DNA from: a virus
Lineage: Duplodnaviria > Caudoviricetes
Length of the DNA: 37,158 bases
IMG/VR virus record: IMGVR_UViG_3300011335_000219
Span: 1 to 37,158 of that record
Direction: 5' to 3' (one strand)
The notes below the pieces were generated by a model. That model did not search any database. It was not told the origin of the DNA and was given only the letters and a program-made list of their open reading frames with translations. A program made the translations under genes and the position numbers. Shown here one piece after another: positions 3,902-35,885 of the stretch. Within the stretch, counting starts at the first letter, position 1, and every line of letters begins with the position of its first letter.

Positions 3902-3928
3902 AGCCCGCCTGCCAGCGGGCTTTTTATT
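3902..3928. terminator. Hairpin upstream of the primase RBS (terminator-like on + strand)
   Basis: AGCCCGC-CTGCCA-GCGGGCT followed by TTTTATT. Confidence 0.6.
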
Positions 3929-4273
3929 TAACTGATTACGCGAAGCTCACGCAAAAGCGCTTCGGTCTTTGCAATATATTGCTCCGATCCCGAATGATGC
4001 TTTTGCGAGCAACCCACGCCTGCCACCCCACTGGTGGTCTGATACTCCCAAAACACCCGCAGGCGCTCCAGGCTTGAATCCAAGTGGCTGTTGACCACTT
4101 CGTTTTCGCTCATCTCGAGCAACGCATGCACATACGCGCAAACCGCAGCCAAGCACGTCACGTCCTTGCCCCGTAACACCATGACGGGCTCGTTTTCGTC
4201 GATGAAGTATTCCCCCCCCCCCCCGGTGATAAAGGCGATCAGTGTCGCCGAATTTGTACTTTGGGTCGTTCAT
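3928..4273 (-). pseudogene. Small phage protein ('ENEPVMVLRGKD' type) frameshifted at a G13 tract
   Basis: ATG overlaps the polymerase stop (ATGA); removing one G from the tract (C13 at 4212-4224 on +) gives one 114-aa ORF MNDPKYKF...HRGGGEYFIDENEPVMVLRGKD...RVIS. Confidence 0.75.
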
Positions 4274-6180
4274 TTTCCATACCTTTCCATTATGTTTACC
4301 TCTGCGTCAAGGGGCAAGCCCTTGGCCCACTCGGGCGGCGTACACATCACCTCTTTCAATCGCACGGCCATCTCTTCTGGCCGGTCGGTCTCAATAACCA
4401 CCTCGTCATGGACGTGGAGCACCACGTCATCAAGCTGGCGCAGGGTATGGCGTAGCAAATCATTGGCGGTGGCTTGTGTGATATTCTCACACGCTAGACC
4501 CTTCCAAAGCCTTGCACGCGGCCATTCTTTTGCATCAGCCGCCGGTTTCCAAGCGGCCTTGGCGTAGGTCACACCATCGGCGTCTAGCTTGGCAAACGGG
4601 TAGCACAGCACCCGCGCGGAGGGCAGAGCGTACCAGAGATGCTGGCCATCGAACATATAGGTGACCCGCCCCGCGCTGAACTCATGGCCTTTGTTGCGCA
4701 TCGCCCTGGTGTAAGCTTCTTCAAGCTGCTGCCAGTAAGGTACAGACCAAGGGTTTGCCCTACGCCATGCGTCAACCATGCGCTTGGATTCAAACTCGGT
4801 GAGTTGCACGCCGTAGGCGCGGCCCATGGCCGCAAAGGCACCCACGCCGCCAGCGAAGCCGCAGGCGAGCTCTTGCACCTTGCCGATCTGGCGCTGGTCT
4901 TTGGTTACATCGGCGACAGCGACGCCAAAGGTGGCGGCGGCGTTGACCTTGTACACATCCTCACCCTTGGCAAAGATGGCCAACTTGTCATCCCCACGGC
5001 CTGAAAGCCACGGATTGGCGCGGGCCTCTATCGCCGCCCAGTCAGCCACGACCAAGGACTTACCCGGCGCTGGTATCAGTGCGGGCCTGAGCATCCCCTT
5101 GAGGACATCAGTAACGCGCTTTCCAAATCGAGGAACAATTGAATGGCCTCTGACCATTGCAGTTCTAACGTCTTCGGGCGATTCGGCGCACTTGCGAGTG
5201 AAATTGTGAACCTGGGCTCCATAGCTACTGGCTCTGCCTGTTGCGCTGCCGCCTGCGAATACAAACGCGCCTCGAACTCGGTTGTCCTCGACATCTGCCA
5301 GGCTTGCAAGGCGGCTGAACTTCGCAACCGACGACGCCCAGAGATCGTCGGCGCATTGAATGACTTCTTGAACATGGGGTGGGACATCCTCACAGTTTAA
5401 TAAATTCGCCCGCACAGTCTTGTCGATGCTGTACTTCATCTCGCCATCTTTGTAGGTCTCCATGAGCTTGAGGGCTTGCGGGCCTACGCGCTCGATCACC
5501 CACTGGCGCATCTTGGGAGAGCGCACGCTGGTGATGGCGCCCTCGGTGACCTCGGCCACGATCTGCTCAATCTCGATGAGCTCGTCGCTGGCGTACTTGA
5601 CAGCGGCTTTGCACAGGGGCACATCGACCAACACGCCCCGGTCGTTGATGCGTTCGTTGATGTGGTAGTCGAGCAGTTCGTCCTCTGACAGTGGCCGCAA
5701 CGCCTTGCTGATCGAGCGCATGGCGCGCACGTCTTGTTCGCAGTAGCGAATCATCTCGGCCATCAGGGCCGGGTCGTCGCGGAATGGCGGTATGCACAAC
5801 AAGCGGATCAACTGCGAGCCGCGATGGTCTTTCTTCATGGATGCGCCGGCGAAGCGCCCCACGTCCTCAAGCGAACCCGGCGCGCAGTTGGCGCGGGCCT
5901 GGGTGGCGGTGCAAACAAACTGTGTTAAGTCAAAGTTGATCTGCAACACGTACCAAAAAATTAAGCGCTCAAACGCAGCGTTGTGGGCGTAGATCAAGCC
6001 CTTGTGGTTGCGCACGCTTTCGGGAAATGGTTGGTCAGGCGTCCATGTCTGGACATCTTCATCATCAAAAGCCCACGACATACACAGCACGTCGGTCGAT
6101 GGATCTTGAGCGTAGTTGTAAACGCCTGCGGCTTTTAGGTCGCAGGCGCTACGGGTTTCAAAGTCAATCCAGAGCGTCAT
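4270..6180 (-). CDS. Family A DNA polymerase with 3'-5' exonuclease
   Basis: DFET and AHNAAFE exonuclease motifs; ATGR; DWAAIEAR (motif A); RQIGKVQELACGF (motif B); HVHDE (motif C). Confidence 0.95.
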   Translation of the reverse strand: MTLWIDFETRSACDLKAAGVYNYAQDPSTDVLCMSWAFDDEDVQTWTPDQPFPESVRNHKGLIYAHNAAFERLIFWYVLQINFDLTQFVCTATQARANCAPGSLEDVGRFAGASMKKDHRGSQLIRLLCIPPFRDDPALMAEMIRYCEQDVRAMRSISKALRPLSEDELLDYHINERINDRGVLVDVPLCKAAVKYASDELIEIEQIVAEVTEGAITSVRSPKMRQWVIERVGPQALKLMETYKDGEMKYSIDKTVRANLLNCEDVPPHVQEVIQCADDLWASSVAKFSRLASLADVEDNRVRGAFVFAGGSATGRASSYGAQVHNFTRKCAESPEDVRTAMVRGHSIVPRFGKRVTDVLKGMLRPALIPAPGKSLVVADWAAIEARANPWLSGRGDDKLAIFAKGEDVYKVNAAATFGVAVADVTKDQRQIGKVQELACGFAGGVGAFAAMGRAYGVQLTEFESKRMVDAWRRANPWSVPYWQQLEEAYTRAMRNKGHEFSAGRVTYMFDGQHLWYALPSARVLCYPFAKLDADGVTYAKAAWKPAADAKEWPRARLWKGLACENITQATANDLLRHTLRQLDDVVLHVHDEVVIETDRPEEMAVRLKEVMCTPPEWAKGLPLDAEVNIMERYGK

Positions 6181-6744
6181 TTTTTAGGGTAGTTTACTGT
6201 TGGGTATTGCAATGAATCGCGCAAACGCGCGACTTCTTTTTTTTGCGCCGATAAAAGTTACATACCGGTGTTTTGCTGAACGATTAACTCGGTTTGTTTT
6301 GTCGCCAGAATGGTGCCTGCTGTGCTTGCCGTCTTTTGCCGCCATGTCAGTCCTGGGCTTTGTAGTGCCAGTAAACAAAAAATTACACGCTTGATAGACA
6401 TACCCAACATGCCCTTGCGCGGTGTCTGCATAAGACACAACCACACGCGGTGTGGGTAGCATAGCCAAAGATCGGCCAACTAAAAAAGACGCCTCGTTTT
6501 TAATGTTGTGAGTCAATACAAGCCTATTTAATTCAAGAACCAAAGCACGGTTTTCAACACCGCAAACACCTTTGCAAAGCCATGGAGATGCAGGCATACC
6601 ATATGTGACAACGCCTACAAGCGCGTCGGACAAAAATAAACCAAACGCAAAACTGATTGACGGCATACGCTTTGCGTAATGCAAATCCAATATAAACGGT
6701 TTGGTATCCGCGTATGAAATTGGTCGAACAGAATATAACTTCAA
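6177..6744 (-). CDS. mom: Mom-family adenine-modification (GNAT) protein; C-terminus frameshifted at an A8 tract
   Basis: HY.K..P, GVVTYG.PAS, LELNRL, SYAD..QGH.G.VYQA.N..F.G and KHRY motifs; TTG start at 6744 with AGGAG RBS. As sequenced it stops at 6184; with A7 it ends ...LQYPTVNYPKK with its TGA overlapping the polymerase ATG. Confidence 0.8.
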
Positions 6745-6762
6745 TGTAGTGTCTCCTTTCCA

Positions 6763-6783
6763 ATGCCGCCTGTCACGCGGCAT
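6763..6783. promoter_or_regulatory. Hairpin between the SSB gene and the mom-like RBS
   Basis: ATGCCGC-CTGTCAC-GCGGCAT. Confidence 0.5.
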
Positions 6784-6795
6784 CAGAAAAGCCGC

Positions 6796-7431
6796 TTAGG
6801 CAGACCGACGACGACGACCAGCGGGCGCAGGCGCGGGCGTTTCGACAGCAACCTCGGGCTCACCGTCCATGCTGACCCACTCTTGCACCTCAAACACGGG
6901 CGTGTAGATTTTGCCGTAGCTTTTGTGGGCGTAGTGATCCTTTTTGAGTTTCACAATCGCCACTGGCTTTGCTTGGTCTTTTTCGACCTGCTCTGCCAAC
7001 GCTACAGCCAAGGTCTGCACAGAACGCTTACCGCCCACTGACGTGGTGGTGTACCGCGCTTCCATGCCCTTGTCTTCACCGCTGATGCACTTGAGGCTCA
7101 TGCCCACTTGTGTCTCCCAACCTTTTTTGGCGCCGGGAGGCGCTTCATCAAGCTCGGGCAGCGGTTGGGACACCGACGCCATCTTCTCGGCCAGCACTTC
7201 ACCATCACCCCAGGCGATGAAGCCGTGGACAAAGCTGAAAGGATTGATGGCCCAGGTGGAGTCGTCTTCCACTTCGGTTTGATCGGCACCGAAGACCCAA
7301 TGGCCAGTCTTGTCCATTTTCAGGATGACTGTACCGGCTGGGCCAACGTCTGCTTGGATCGCGCGCAAAGCGGTTGAGAGGGTGGAGACTGCGGGCAAGC
7401 CCGCTTGAGAGAACGCTACTAAATTGGACAT
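6796..7431 (-). CDS. Putative ssDNA-binding/annealing protein
   Basis: Sits between nuclease and polymerase; HKSYGKIYTPVF motif; acidic/Pro-rich then basic tail. Confidence 0.7.
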   Translation of the reverse strand: MSNLVAFSQAGLPAVSTLSTALRAIQADVGPAGTVILKMDKTGHWVFGADQTEVEDDSTWAINPFSFVHGFIAWGDGEVLAEKMASVSQPLPELDEAPPGAKKGWETQVGMSLKCISGEDKGMEARYTTTSVGGKRSVQTLAVALAEQVEKDQAKPVAIVKLKKDHYAHKSYGKIYTPVFEVQEWVSMDGEPEVAVETPAPAPAGRRRRSA

Positions 7432-24394: not shown

Positions 24395-25594
24395 TCAACC
24401 CCAAATGCGGCAGGCCATCTGAGGACGAATGGTGGAGAAGCCATACAACACGTCGATACGGCAAGGCATACGGTCGTTGTTGATGTCGTACTGGCGAACC
24501 ACACGCAAGCTGATGCCATTGTGGACGGCACGCGCGGCCATGTCGACGCCCTGGGGCAGCAACAAGTCAGCGGTGGCGAACGTGATGGCGTCCTTGTGGT
24601 ATACCAAGTTCTGGGGGTACTGAGTTGAAGCAGCACCCACAAACACCACGGCCTTAGCGTTAGCTGGCAAAGTCAGCATGGTCGCCAAAGCATGGCTGGC
24701 CGAGTACATCGGCGCCACGGTCACGGTAGCAGTGGTGGTGGCTGTCGTTGACGCCAAAGCCACGAACTGGAACAGCGAGCCGGTGGACTCACGGGTCTGT
24801 GGGTTCACAGCAAAGCAGTCAGCAATCGTGAACACGTCACCAACGGCGATGGTTTCACCAGTACCAACAGTCAGCGTCAGCGTAACAGAACCTTCAGCGG
24901 TCACGGCGGCAGCAGTGACGGTGCCGGTAGCGGCGCGGGTGCCAGTAGAGTGCTGCTTGATCGACTGAGACATGTTGATCTCGTCAAAGCCCAACACGCC
25001 CATGCCCATCATGCCGTTCTTGAATTGGCGGCTGATGGTATCGGTGGGGTTGAACAGACCTTTCATGCCTTCGACCAAACCAGCGTTAGCGGCGGGGTTG
25101 ACGGTGGCATAACGGGGGCTCATCACAGCGGCGTTCTCGTTCAGCTTCTGCTGGGCTTGCAACAGCACCAAAGAAGTCGAAGGAGTGGTGCCAGGAGTGC
25201 CCACGGTGTTACCGATGCTCTTGTAAGCATTGGCAACGTCAGCGTCGATGGAACTGGCCAACTGGCTGATACGAGGCTTCAACACACGCTATGCGAAGTC
25301 ATCCAATTGCCTGGTCAATTCAGCAGATGTGAAGTTGACACCAATGTGCTTTTGGCTGGCCACGGTCAAGGTGGTGAACTGCTCGTTGTCGTCTTGAACT
25401 TGCAAGGCGGCGCCGTCGGTCACCAAAGCGCGATCCGGCAGGCGAATACGCAGGGTCGAACCAATCTTGGCACCTTCAACAGCAAAGCTGTCGTCGTACT
25501 GACGGTTCACGTTACGGGTCAACACAAGGTTGTTTTCGAGAATCTCAAGCGCTTTGCGCGTGATCATGTCGATGGTTAAGATACTGTTAGCCAT
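24395..25594 (-). CDS. Major capsid protein (P22 gp5-like) interrupted by an in-frame TAG at 25289-25291
   Basis: Two ORFs in the same frame: ...QLDDFA*RVLKPRISQLA...; C-terminal CRIDVLYG motif. Confidence 0.9.
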
Positions 25595-26475: not shown

Positions 26476-26535
26476 TTAGCAATCTACTGCGTTAGCAAAT
26501 TCTGGCAGCGTTTTTAAATGCGCGTAAACTTGTTT
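26476..26535 (-). pseudogene. 3' relic of a tail-fibre accessory gene (KQVYAHLKTLPEFANAVDC*)
   Basis: Open frame starting at the tailspike stop; resembles the 'QAYxHLKTLPEFxxAxDC' C-terminus of small proteins that follow phage fibres. Confidence 0.55.
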
Positions 26536-27973
26536 ACCCAGAATAATTGCCATGTGATGCACCCAAATAAGTCATAATTCCATAAGCTATTTCATCGCCG
26601 CCACCTGCACCCCAATCTGCCGTTGTGGTCACATTTAAACGAACAAATGCGGGTGGATTAGCTTTGTTTAACGTGCCCCCACCGCTAGAATTCAACACAG
26701 TCACAGAATTGACCGTGAATTGATTTAAGCCGACTAATGTGTTGCTGGTTGCGCCATAGATCACGCCGTAAGTATCAGCGCCAGCAACAAAATAAGTCAA
26801 ATAAATTTCTTGTGTGTATATTTCTTGATTTGTCCCGGCAAATGTAGTGTGAAAAAAATGCAGCTTGTATGCTGACGCAATTGAATTTCTACCAAGTGCT
26901 GGGTTTGAATCCAATCCCGTGCCAAGCCCAAGATCAAAATCGTATGTACTACTAGCTTGTATTGCGGCCTGTCGCCACCCGTTTGGAAATTGCGCTCGGA
27001 ACGTTCCATATTGAATGTCATGGATAACATAGTCTACTAGATTGCGATAACTACCACTTGACCAACCCCCAGGCGTAATATTTTGAATGTTAAATCCGCG
27101 TGCAATGGTTAAATCTTCGGCATAAATTAAACCATCGCGGCGATAATCAGGGCCAGCGCTGGTTGTTTCCCAACCGCCTGTATCAATATGCCAAGATTCA
27201 TAAACGTTAATGGCCCCCGCCGTATATTTTAAAAACATTGGGTTTGGATTGGTGTCAAATCCATTGTTAATGGATTTTTGACGTTGAGAATCAAAATTGC
27301 AATTGGCCCAACGAATGCCAGATATTTTTGACCCTGCGCCGATTCCACCACTAACTGCGTACACCGCTGCGCCATTGTTGCTCAACAAGCTAACGCCACG
27401 ACATTCGCACATTTCAAAAAGTGTTTCGTTGATGAATGACCCGTTTGCACCTGATAATTCAAGATAAAAAGCACTTGCGCCCACATCATCACATTCAATG
27501 GTAAATATTCCGTTTTCTACCCATGCATAATCGCTACAAATGATAGAAAACCCATGTCTACCAGTATTGCGAATAAAAACATTTCTGACAATTGGATGAT
27601 CGCCTATTTGCAAACAAATGCCATCTCTGCCAACGCCATTTAAATTAATGCTTAAATTTTCGACTTGTGTTGGGCGATAACCAGCCCCAACCATTATGAT
27701 TCCATCAGCAGTTGCACCAAGCCCAACAAAATTAAACGTAGGCATTCCAACACCAACAATTCTTGCACCTTTATTTGCAAGACCAAGTAACAATGTGGTT
27801 GTGATTTTGTAAGTACCTGAAGGCACAATTACAACTCCATCGTCTGTAACTGAATCAATAGCCGCTTGTATAGCAGTTGTGCTATCTGCAACGCCTGTTA
27901 GGTCTGCACCAAAGTCTAAAATATTTACGGGCGCACCCGTAATCATGGAATAAGAAACTTTCGTAAGCGACAT
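26534..27973 (-). CDS. Tailspike / receptor-binding protein (pectate-lyase-3-like beta-helix)
   Basis: VNILDFGA...DSTTAIQAAID...VPSGTYKI motif; AT-rich body. Confidence 0.85.
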   Translation of the reverse strand: MSLTKVSYSMITGAPVNILDFGADLTGVADSTTAIQAAIDSVTDDGVVIVPSGTYKITTTLLLGLANKGARIVGVGMPTFNFVGLGATADGIIMVGAGYRPTQVENLSINLNGVGRDGICLQIGDHPIVRNVFIRNTGRHGFSIICSDYAWVENGIFTIECDDVGASAFYLELSGANGSFINETLFEMCECRGVSLLSNNGAAVYAVSGGIGAGSKISGIRWANCNFDSQRQKSINNGFDTNPNPMFLKYTAGAINVYESWHIDTGGWETTSAGPDYRRDGLIYAEDLTIARGFNIQNITPGGWSSGSYRNLVDYVIHDIQYGTFRAQFPNGWRQAAIQASSTYDFDLGLGTGLDSNPALGRNSIASAYKLHFFHTTFAGTNQEIYTQEIYLTYFVAGADTYGVIYGATSNTLVGLNQFTVNSVTVLNSSGGGTLNKANPPAFVRLNVTTTADWGAGGGDEIAYGIMTYLGASHGNYSG

Positions 27974-29127
27974 TATTTATTCTCCAATGCCGTTAGTCGG
28001 GTTGTTAATGATTCTATAAGTGCTTGCTGTTCTTGAATACACTTCATTAGTGCATATTGCAAGTCAGTTTGGTAAATTTCTAAACGCATTTTTGGTTCTT
28101 CTTTAGAACCCCAATTGCCTTCAGTTACTAATTCGGGTGCAACCGCTTGCACATCTTGAGCAACTACACCCAACGTCAAGCCAGCATCTTCTTCAAGGTT
28201 TTGGTCGATGTAATTGAATGTCTGAACAGGTATGGCGCAAATTTTGTCAAGATATGAACCTGCTGGTGCAAAGTTTGTTTTTTCTCTGCGGTCAGAAAGA
28301 ATTACGTTATTTGCAGCGTAATTTGCAATGCCCCCATTGGAACGAACTTCCATTTTTAAGCCAACAGTATCATCACAATAAAGATATTGTGAGGCTGTGT
28401 CATTTGGTGCGCCACCTGTATAGCTTATAGCTATGCCATATGGTGCGTCCCCAAAAGGCACTGGTACAACACTATTTTGCAATACTAAAACCTGTCCAGC
28501 AGTAGATTTCAAAACCCCAACTTTTCCTGAACCTAATAGACTCGTAGTCCCCACGAGCAAGTTACCGCTAACAGCCGCAGTACCAACTACGTCAAGTTTC
28601 ACTGCTGGTGATGCTGTGCCTACCCCAACACGACTATTTGTTGCATCGGTATAAAACAAATTTGCATCTGTATCGCCTTCAATACGCACGTTAAAGACTG
28701 CACCAATCTCGTTAATCACAAGATTGGTCGTGCCAATAATCATCTTTTCAGTCAATGCACCAGCAGTTGCAGTCTCAAAGTGAAGCTGTCCCTGTTCAGC
28801 AGTGGAAGTTGGACTGAGAATAGATGCGTGAATTAAACCATACGCTTGCTTGTTGCCTGCTGAATCTTCACCGTTAAATTCAATTTCGCCAAGGGTATCA
28901 GATGCCGCTGGGCTTGCTGAGTCGCGGTATAACTCAAGTATTGGTGCGGCTGCTGCGCCTGCATCCGTAGATGTCAAGGTCATGGCCAAAGCGTCAAAAG
29001 ATCGACCGGCAGTTAAATTAGCAACTGAAACTTGTTTAGTAGTGCTAGATTGAACAATAGGTAAAACTTCGGTTCCCGCCAGCGGGACGGTGGATGCGGG
29101 TAACGCTGAGATTTTGGTATCGGCCAT
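27973..29127 (-). CDS. Tail fibre with C-terminal peptidase S74-type intramolecular chaperone
   Basis: RVGVGTASP repeat; SDRREKTN...GVVAQDV...KCIQEQQ.. C-terminus. Confidence 0.85.
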   Translation of the reverse strand: MADTKISALPASTVPLAGTEVLPIVQSSTTKQVSVANLTAGRSFDALAMTLTSTDAGAAAAPILELYRDSASPAASDTLGEIEFNGEDSAGNKQAYGLIHASILSPTSTAEQGQLHFETATAGALTEKMIIGTTNLVINEIGAVFNVRIEGDTDANLFYTDATNSRVGVGTASPAVKLDVVGTAAVSGNLLVGTTSLLGSGKVGVLKSTAGQVLVLQNSVVPVPFGDAPYGIAISYTGGAPNDTASQYLYCDDTVGLKMEVRSNGGIANYAANNVILSDRREKTNFAPAGSYLDKICAIPVQTFNYIDQNLEEDAGLTLGVVAQDVQAVAPELVTEGNWGSKEEPKMRLEIYQTDLQYALMKCIQEQQALIESLTTRLTALENK

Positions 29128-34883: not shown

Positions 34884-35304
34884 GCGTGGGTAACTCTAAT
34901 TTAGGGCTGGGTGCGTGGGCGATAACGTCGATGACTCTGGACTCAGCGTCGCGCAGCGCCTGGGTGACTGAGATGCGCTGATCGACATCAATAGTGATAG
35001 ATTGCTTGGCCACCCAACCGTGGACGTTCTGGAGTATGGCCAACGCCGCTTTGGAGTCGCCTTCGCGCGCTGCCTTGTGCAGGCACTGAGACATTTCCAT
35101 CTCAGCGTCTGCTTTGCCTTTTTGCGCGGCCATCTCCGCGATGGGGTCAAGCTGCACCAGTTGCCGGTACTCGGCGGGCAGCATGCCGGAGGCCAACGCC
35201 AACGAGTCGCCTTTCAGCCCCAGCTTGGCAGCTTCGTAGATGCGGGTTAAGCGCGCCTCAGTCGCTTCGACCTTGCGCGGTGCAAAAGGTAGGCTTTCAA
35301 ACAT
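34858..35304 (-). CDS. terS: Terminase small subunit (probable)
   Basis: Helical 148-aa ORF overlapping the terL start; GDSKAALAILQNVHGW motif. Confidence 0.75.
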   Translation of the reverse strand: MFESLPFAPRKVEATEARLTRIYEAAKLGLKGDSLALASGMLPAEYRQLVQLDPIAEMAAQKGKADAEMEMSQCLHKAAREGDSKAALAILQNVHGWVAKQSITIDVDQRISVTQALRDAESRVIDVIAHAPSPKLELPTHAEHQVQR

Positions 35305-35310
35305 GGGCTG

Positions 35311-35319
35311 AATATAACA
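35311..35319 (-). promoter_or_regulatory. Extended -10 late promoter (TGTTATATT) 7 nt from the terS ATG
   Basis: TGn-TATATT; no SD before the ATG. Confidence 0.5.
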
Positions 35320-35340
35320 AAAATTTTTAAAAATGAACGG

Positions 35341-35885
35341 TGTGGGCAATGTGGGCAATAAAAAATTTTGTTTGTGGCCCCTCCGCTGCCGTGACCTTCG
35401 GCGCTCGGCCCTACCCGGGGGCCCTCAAGCAAACGGCAAACGGCCACCGGCCATGAAGCTTACAAACCTTACAATACTTACAGTGTAGTACTTTGGTGGG
35501 GGGCAATGTGGGCAGTGCCCACACTACCCGCAGGCTCGCTGGCCGGTGCCATCGCGCACCAGGTAGCGCACCAGGTAGCGCACCAGGTAGCGCACCAGGT
35601 GGGCATTTGTGGACAATGTGGACAATGTACCCACGCATTTTTAATCGCTGCCCAAACGGGGGGTTGTGAGCATTCGTGAGCCATACACCTACTGTATAGC
35701 TATATAGTATTACAAAAATAAGTATCATCTAGCGTATCATTTAAAGTAGTCCACATTGTCCACAATTACCGGTTTTCACTCTCAACCCCGGTCGATCGCA
35801 CGTTGTCCACAATGAGCCCAAACGCGCCCACAATCGCGCCCACACCAATAACCCCACACAATTGAAGGTCTAAAAATGTGGGCAA
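35341..35885. other. Putative replication origin with oriented TGTGG(A/G)CAA iterons and an AT-rich core
   Basis: About a dozen exact or near copies, mostly forward on the left and reverse on the right of AT-rich 35690-35746. Confidence 0.65.
35554..35600. repeat. Tandem repeat (GCGCACCAGGTA) x ~4
   Basis: Three perfect 12-bp units plus an 11-bp unit. Confidence 0.95.

Follow-up and report, generated by a model that had tools for sequence, protein, structure and literature searches.

A probable poly-G ON/OFF switch in a small phage gene beside polA, next to a mom-like gene in what appears to be a separate slot

Introduction

Contingency loci of phages have only recently been described, mostly as mutable runs in laboratory phages. 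T2 agt and T4 rIIA are two such loci, for which reversion rates and opposing defences have been measured, the A run of T2 agt reverting about 1000-fold faster than by point mutation (Gomez, Barrick, Waters 2025, PMC12633550); poly-G tracts are also documented in the receptor-binding protein genes of Campylobacter Fletchervirus phages (G7-G11), in the BPP-1 methylase gene and in a baseplate gene of PB1-like phage (PMC12633550). Mom of phage Mu (PF25680, PDB 8BV8) is a Gly-tRNA-dependent adenine hypermodifier (PMC13219725, PMC7261163), in which R151 and a helix-turn-helix (HTH)-like insertion (175-209) are essential (PMC13219725), while phage sponges and other small anti-defence proteins are described together with host systems that detect them, such as Panoptes and PARIS (10.1101/2025.07.12.664507, PMC13712596). 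The present analysis concerns the 37,158 bases of IMG/VR virus record IMGVR_UViG_3300011335_000219 (Duplodnaviria; Caudoviricetes), hereafter the window, in which a DNA polymerase gene (polA) lies between a mom-like gene and a small accessory gene, each thrown out of frame by a homopolymer.

The reading favored here is that the G run of the small gene is probably a reversible slipped-strand ON/OFF switch, and that the mom-like gene is a separately acquired cassette whose function was likely lost by an incidental A7-to-A8 slip. The principal features are as follows.

3928..4273, minus strand: small accessory gene, running from ATG at 4273 to TAA at 3928 once one base shorter; OFF in this assembly
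4212..4224 (C13 on the plus strand), minus strand: poly-G tract, starting at codon 17 and spanning Arg-Gly-Gly codons; G13 here, G10 in the contigs of two sequencing runs, G8-G12 in other alleles
6180-4270, minus strand: family A DNA polymerase gene (polA), an intact core gene of 636 amino acids; PF00476 E 5.6e-16, phrog_17 E 8.5e-94
6177..6744, minus strand: mom-like GNAT gene; PF25680 E 3.1e-33, phrog_1384 E 3.7e-50
6237..6244 (T8 on the plus strand), minus strand: A run in Ala-Lys-Lys codons, from codon 167

The description given by an earlier sequence-only reading of this DNA is accurate in each particular: both ATGA junctions, G13, A8, the two +1 frameshifts and the intact polA are all present in the sequence.

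The poly-G tract of the small gene

The C13 at 4212-4224 is the sole G/C run longer than 6 in the window, where about 0.002 runs of at least 13 would be expected by chance. Removing one G places the small open reading frame (ORF) in the frame of its natural homologues, and the ATGA shared with polA (4273-4270) is present regardless of tract length. Alleles of the gene were collected by patterns lying outside the tract, and their lengths, like all allele lengths reported here, were read from assembled contigs; 50 rows yielded 24 distinct alleles, window included, once duplicate contigs and three fragments without one side of the tract (L181, L206, and L210) had been dropped. A run of G8-G13 occupies the same codon (17) in 21 of the 24, of which 11 are in frame, 6 are shifted by -1, and 4 by +1; the three tract-free alleles, L173 among them, are all in frame. 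As in other contingency loci, an intragenic repeat sets the frame, and its length varies in both directions among near-identical genomes: one such group comprises L161 (G8), L162 (G9), L209 (G8), the window (G13), and the contigs of runs X1 and X5 (G10), a second pair comprises L169 (G9) and L211 (G10), and the near-identical pairs L161/L162, L169/L211, and L168/L176 differ in frame. On the tree, ON and OFF alleles are intermingled, and the strong branches require at least five changes of state. Beyond the tract, the shifted frames extend for 6-87 and 8-88 codons and are not conserved; dual coding was ruled out, since the 108-residue +1 ORF is open in the window alone.

The tract has persisted while the surrounding sequence diverged. 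Outside it, none of 32 fourfold-degenerate sites is invariant across the 21 alleles, and synonymous sites are saturated (mean proportion of synonymous differences, pS, 0.74-0.81) at a nonsynonymous proportion (pN) of 0.06-0.07 across ON-ON, ON-OFF, and OFF-OFF pairs; the run itself is uninterrupted in all 21. Its Arg codon is CGG in some alleles and AGG in others, either of which preserves the G's, and GGG accounts for only 9 of the 126 Gly codons outside the tract. As the four residues at the tract site take 22 different forms among 36 homologues, Gly-Gly is evidently not required there by the protein. Runs of at least eight G or C are otherwise scarce (3 in 572 kb of related loci). OFF alleles are constrained like ON alleles (pN 0.058 vs 0.069), pN being 0.06 against a pS of 0.74 even between OFF alleles, and no second lesion was found in them across the 91 codons after the tract. 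Taken together, these comparisons indicate that the repeat is maintained by selection while the gene remains intact in the OFF state. The proposal of the sequence-only reading that the poly-G acts as a slipped-strand contingency switch is thus supported, in that 21 of 24 alleles keep the tract, the frame varies, and OFF alleles are under purifying selection.

Mechanistically, replication slippage would add or remove a G, such that 9 or 12 G would yield the full protein and other lengths a short unrelated tail; a phage population would thereby hold both ON and OFF states of a small early protein, one that probably helps in certain hosts and does harm in others.

Alternative explanations for the tract

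According to the first alternative, which is rather improbable, the tract truly exists and is conserved, but its out-of-frame lengths stem from errors of sequencing or assembly, and the gene is nearly always ON in nature. Several observations that weigh against a switch belong here. The contigs of runs X1 and X5 (one study) are identical to the window across the small ORF except for three C fewer at 4212, which makes them G10 and likewise out of frame (+1); whether the window is truly G13 or G10 is therefore unsure, and the X1 contig may come from the window's own sample. The letters just after the run differ in 3 of the 21 alleles (L067, L167, and L168), which could be base-call smear, so that some OFF calls may be artefacts, and the window has a probable base error elsewhere, in its capsid gene. 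Frame does not cluster on the tree, an interleaving that is equally expected from assembly error. All of this evidence consists of assembled contigs, switching within a single population not being among the observations, and frameshifts in tract-bearing relative to tract-free alleles do not reach significance (10/21 vs 0/3, p 0.18). Core genes gave no control, none having a G/C run of 7 or more.

Four points run counter to error as the explanation. Methyltransferase copies from the same collection that carry a G/C run of 8-9 are frameshifted in 0 of 9 cases, as compared with 10 of 21 here (Fisher p 0.012), a value that is optimistic given the small set, its draw from the best 80 of 591 hits, and its inclusion of near-identical copies (L264-L266). 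G10 was found in two runs, and repeat fetches of one contig or allele agree in length. In gene calls of a different origin (P0013, P0016, and P0030), the start is out of frame and lies upstream of this same run. Lastly, the survival of the tract through saturated synonymous change is left unexplained by error.

It is also improbable that the run is a recoding signal, whereby ribosome or RNA polymerase slippage would give some full protein at every length and the run would tune dose. Such a signal would account for purifying selection on OFF alleles, and a run of GGG codons allows tRNA re-pairing in any frame. Recoded genes, however, usually hold one fixed frame offset, whereas all three frames occur among the small-gene alleles, and the sequence within 60 nt of the tract holds no conserved RNA structure, the one predicted hairpin being located about 65-85 nt downstream.

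Quite improbable is a neutral microsatellite in an unimportant gene, kept pure by slippage, with OFF alleles as short-lived knock-outs. Slippage is able to purge interruptions from a repeat, and the small gene is missing from 73 of 74 polA loci with both flanks as well as from close phages in runs X7 and X8. Nevertheless, a pN/pS of about 0.08 denotes strong constraint on the protein; under such constraint a stabilising synonymous change would be favored, yet none of the 21 alleles has one at saturated divergence, and the OFF alleles are free of a second lesion.

Two further groups of G runs were observed in passing. Distant relatives of the small gene (L244-L246, at about 4276/3979, L252, and L253) carry G8-G10 runs at other positions, with one of L244-L246 frameshifted (L246) and L252 in frame; as further switches, these second-site runs are suggestive. 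In several alleles of a short C5-methyltransferase-like family (L162:1408-2025, L264-L267, L309, L311, and L312), G8-G9 runs are found at codons 17-20; all of these alleles are in frame, and the runs are possibly a second contingency tract.

The mom-like gene and its A run

The assignment of the mom-like gene rests on a PF25680 profile score of 115.6 bits against a curated cut-off of 27.1, and Mu Mom (8bv8) is matched at E 5.2e-9 by L085, a homologue that is intact. In a pairwise alignment, six of seven Mu Mom active-site positions are retained, H58, Y59, R111, S124, D149, and Y159 corresponding to H22, Y23, R74, S86, D107, and Y117 of the window protein, while R151 aligns with Ala109; the alignment stops at residue 140, leaving the HTH-like insertion outside the aligned stretch. 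One further feature lies ahead of the gene.

6753..6783, minus strand: hairpin (6783-6763) and putative AAGGAG ribosome-binding site (6758-6753), preceding the inferred TTG start of the mom-like gene; a reading of the sequence

As assembled, the mom-like ORF is open over 6744-6184 (186 amino acids), and only its last ~19 residues are replaced. In the A7 form, the gene ends at TGA 6179-6177, overlapping the polA ATG (ATGA 6180-6177), in the frame of its homologues. The C-terminal Y..YPK, invariant in 57 of 57 distinct mom-like homologues, is lost in the A8 form, which for this reason is likely inactive, albeit potentially revertible by slippage, as in T2 agt. The T8 at 6237-6244 is one of three A/T runs of 8 in the window (about 0.45 expected), and A8 is thus unremarkable alone. 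It recurs in the contig of run X1, and A7 is found, along with one substitution, in runs X7 and X8 from two other studies.

Homopolymer error, which the sequence-only reading had raised as a real alternative, can thereby be set aside for the A tract, where A8 in an independently assembled contig and A7 in two studies make A7/A8 a real allele difference, though it still applies to the exact length of the G tract. A comparison with related phages, also proposed there, likewise separates the two runs: the G tract of the small gene is conserved, whereas the six closest mom-like homologues all have A6 at the position of the A run. Because none of 76 homologues is frameshifted either (four contig-truncated mom loci having been dropped before the count), the A run fits an incidental mutable run rather than a selected long tract.

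Two slots flanking polA

The mom-like and small genes do not travel together. The small gene was found within 4 kb in 0 of 80 mom loci, and mom within 4 kb in 0 of 21 small-gene loci. Among the 74 polA loci for which both flanks are present, neither gene lies nearby in 72; the small gene accompanies polA in one, and in the last a distant mom hit falls outside the slot and on the opposite strand. The collection was scanned for polA in 33 of its 64 parts, with the best 80 retained, and the absence of a relative with both genes applies to the fetched loci. Close phages in runs X7 and X8 have polA joined directly to primase, with the small gene missing, some phages in runs X3, X5, and X7 are without mom, and the small gene also occurs in phages of different layout.

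Both sides of polA accept other genes. Upstream of polA, 46 of 89 loci have more than 150 extra bases in the gap, and downstream 18 of 90 do, counts that include 14 loci picked because they carry mom or the small gene. Slot inserts include C5 methyltransferases, PAPS-reductase-like genes, and NUMOD4-HNH nucleases, often with an ATGA-type overlap. Given the lack of co-occurrence and the variety of inserts, the two genes appear to occupy separate swappable slots flanking polA, the window being a chance pairing of two cassettes. The upstream slot, between an SSB-like gene (6796-7431) and polA, was itself seen as swappable in L007, L008, L031, L036, L039, L048, L078, L080, and L162, its content varying by relative among C5 methyltransferases, PAPS-reductase-like genes, HNH nucleases, and mom.

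The sequence-only reading had joined both genes, on either side of polA, into a single DNA-modification module with translational coupling and joint phase variation, a model that is very improbable and already largely refuted: both ATGA junctions and both +1 slips are present in the window, A7 and A8 alleles both exist, and modification genes are frequent in the slot upstream of polA, but the two genes are found together in none of the mom or small-gene loci, a mom allele in X8 accompanies a polA-primase junction without the small gene, unrelated inserts also make ATGA overlaps with polA, the closest mom-like homologues have A6, and the small protein is unlike any modification enzyme. What survives of its toggled DNA modification near polA is the recurrence of modification genes in that slot among relatives; a link between the small ORF and modification does not.

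At the far end of the small gene lies one further feature, and terminator-like hairpins of this kind, found by consensus match alone, number 7 against 4.3 expected in shuffles.

3903..3925, plus strand, antisense to the operon: terminator-like G+C hairpin with a T5 tail, separating the small ORF from the primase gene and lying immediately ahead of the start of the latter

The small protein and its possible role

In-frame homologues of the small gene encode 112-114 amino acids with the motif DPKY..H....Y.....EP.M.LRGKD and form an unnamed phage family with 41 near homologues and 115 representatives at E <=0.001, some members of which consist of two tandem domain copies. A structure model (predicted local distance difference test score 90.8) comprises a small beta-hairpin region followed by three helices, with the tract coding for the turn after the second strand, and the protein has a negative net charge. 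H16, E27, R33, D36, H62, C87, and H92 are among its invariant residues. No family match was obtained in Pfam, PHROGs, or NCBIfam, nor any match among PDB sequences (best E 0.1). With the model as query, Foldseek gave nothing at E <=0.001 on the PDB and viral models, and the best VIA-align hits (Z 8.4 and 7.6) are both generic three-helix bundles. An Atlas cluster auto-named 'Aspartate decarboxylase' at 0.87 was not accepted, being under the 0.9 lead threshold, and the rest are hypothetical viral proteins. No paper on the small-gene family or on a phase-variable mom was found in a literature search that lacked a family name as its handle and did not extend to subscription papers and supplements. 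The small gene has no match in cultured phages or GTDB genomes, and consequently no host is assigned.

At most annotated loci, which belong to several phage types, homologues have primase, helicase, exonuclease, Erf/Sak, SSB, and Nin genes as neighbours; with replication and recombination genes mostly surrounding it, the small gene may be expressed early or in the middle phase. Strong constraint, absence from most relatives, and an OFF state in half of the alleles would together be expected of a gene with host-dependent benefit and cost, and anti-defence proteins that are themselves detected by defences (Panoptes, PARIS) are the best-known case of such a trade-off. By this analogy, the small protein may interact with the host or counter its defences, being produced alongside the replication proteins, and what it gains against one defence would be paid for through its detection by another, an idea offered tentatively and at slightly less than even confidence. 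Weighing against it, no search gave a function, and none of the longer relatives was found fused to a known anti-defence domain, their fusions involving KTSC, DNA-ligase-N, and the unnamed PF26207 but no sponge domain. No homology to the sponges Tad1, Tad2, Acb2, Acb4, Sequestin, Lockin, or TadIV-1 appears among the family and fold matches listed.

A bolder extension, conceivable though doubtful, is that the family is a new and widespread anti-defence family of uncatalogued fold, the action of which is sensed by another host defence, and that it moves between lineages as a ready-made switchable cassette, the poly-G switch having arisen more than once within it. If this were true, double-edged counter-defence genes could be recognised generally by the conserved homopolymers that genes of metagenomic phages carry.

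The window and its assembly

The window is a near-complete phage genome (CheckV, 99%) with P22-like portal and coat genes, a family A polymerase, primase, exonuclease, and SNF2 helicase. Sequencing runs containing pieces of it are labelled freshwater, lake, wetland, marine, or by code (runs X10-X24, with small word shares, do not enter the comparisons), and the closest phage-collection record by polA is an uncultured spring phage at 60% identity, cultured phages reaching at most 34%.

No frameshifts were seen in other core genes of the window upon comparison with relatives G001 and G002. The major capsid gene (25594-24395, minus strand) has an in-frame TAG at codon 102 (25289-25291) where 4 of 4 relatives have GAG (Glu), and seven codons upstream it encodes Arg where all four have Met. 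Both changes are probably base errors in a low-coverage spot, or else mark a defective genome; the window thus probably carries at least one base error (the TAG) and is not error-free. At 35247-35728 (minus strand), a 124-residue ORF of G001 aligns in two frames near 35453, with two G6 runs close by, and may represent a shadow ORF or else a small gene that has diverged or been disrupted. A low-GC block (41-47%) at 26534-29127, which encodes a tail spike and tail fibre with an endosialidase-type chaperone and lies outside the blastn matches to G001/G002, is a variable host-range island.

Significance and comparison with known systems

The comparison of wild phages adds to the study of contingency loci one run that appears to be kept by selection amid saturated synonymous sites, with about half of its alleles OFF. 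It also marks an uncharacterised 113-residue protein as having a probable host-dependent cost and benefit, making it a good candidate for anti-defence screens, and it cautions that some frameshifted small genes in viral assemblies are not errors. The mom-like slip, for its part, would be an ordinary instance of a known trade-off.

Among modification systems, the mom-like protein resembles Mu Mom in matching its profile and keeping the six active-site equivalents, and departs from it in having Ala aligned with the essential Arg, in having no aligned counterpart of the HTH-like insertion, and in being encoded within a replication operon as opposed to the late com-mom operon of Mu. T2 agt provides the closer parallel for its A run, as both involve A-run slippage in a DNA-modification gene, and A7/A8 would work likewise in a trade-off between restriction and modification-dependent defence; the run in the mom-like gene differs in lying near the 3' end, in showing two allele states, and in not being conserved in homologues. 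With sponges, the small protein shares its small size, phage-only distribution, and tandem two-domain relatives that hint at oligomers, and a comparable trade-off would favor a switch, but without a sequence or fold match or a sponge-domain fusion, and with a negative net charge, the resemblance is one of analogy.

Finally, the small gene invites comparison with the poly-G loci of Fletchervirus, BPP-1, and PB1-like phages, in which an intragenic G run of similar length sets the frame of a phage gene. Here, by contrast, the target is a small non-structural gene of an unnamed family within a replication module, and the tract travels with its gene across phage layouts and is kept through saturated synonymous divergence. 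In summary, the mechanism would be one already known from homopolymer switches in phages (the poly-G of Fletchervirus, the BPP-1 methylase, and T2 agt), while the novelty lies in the target, a small gene family not yet characterised, and in the comparative evidence of tract conservation.

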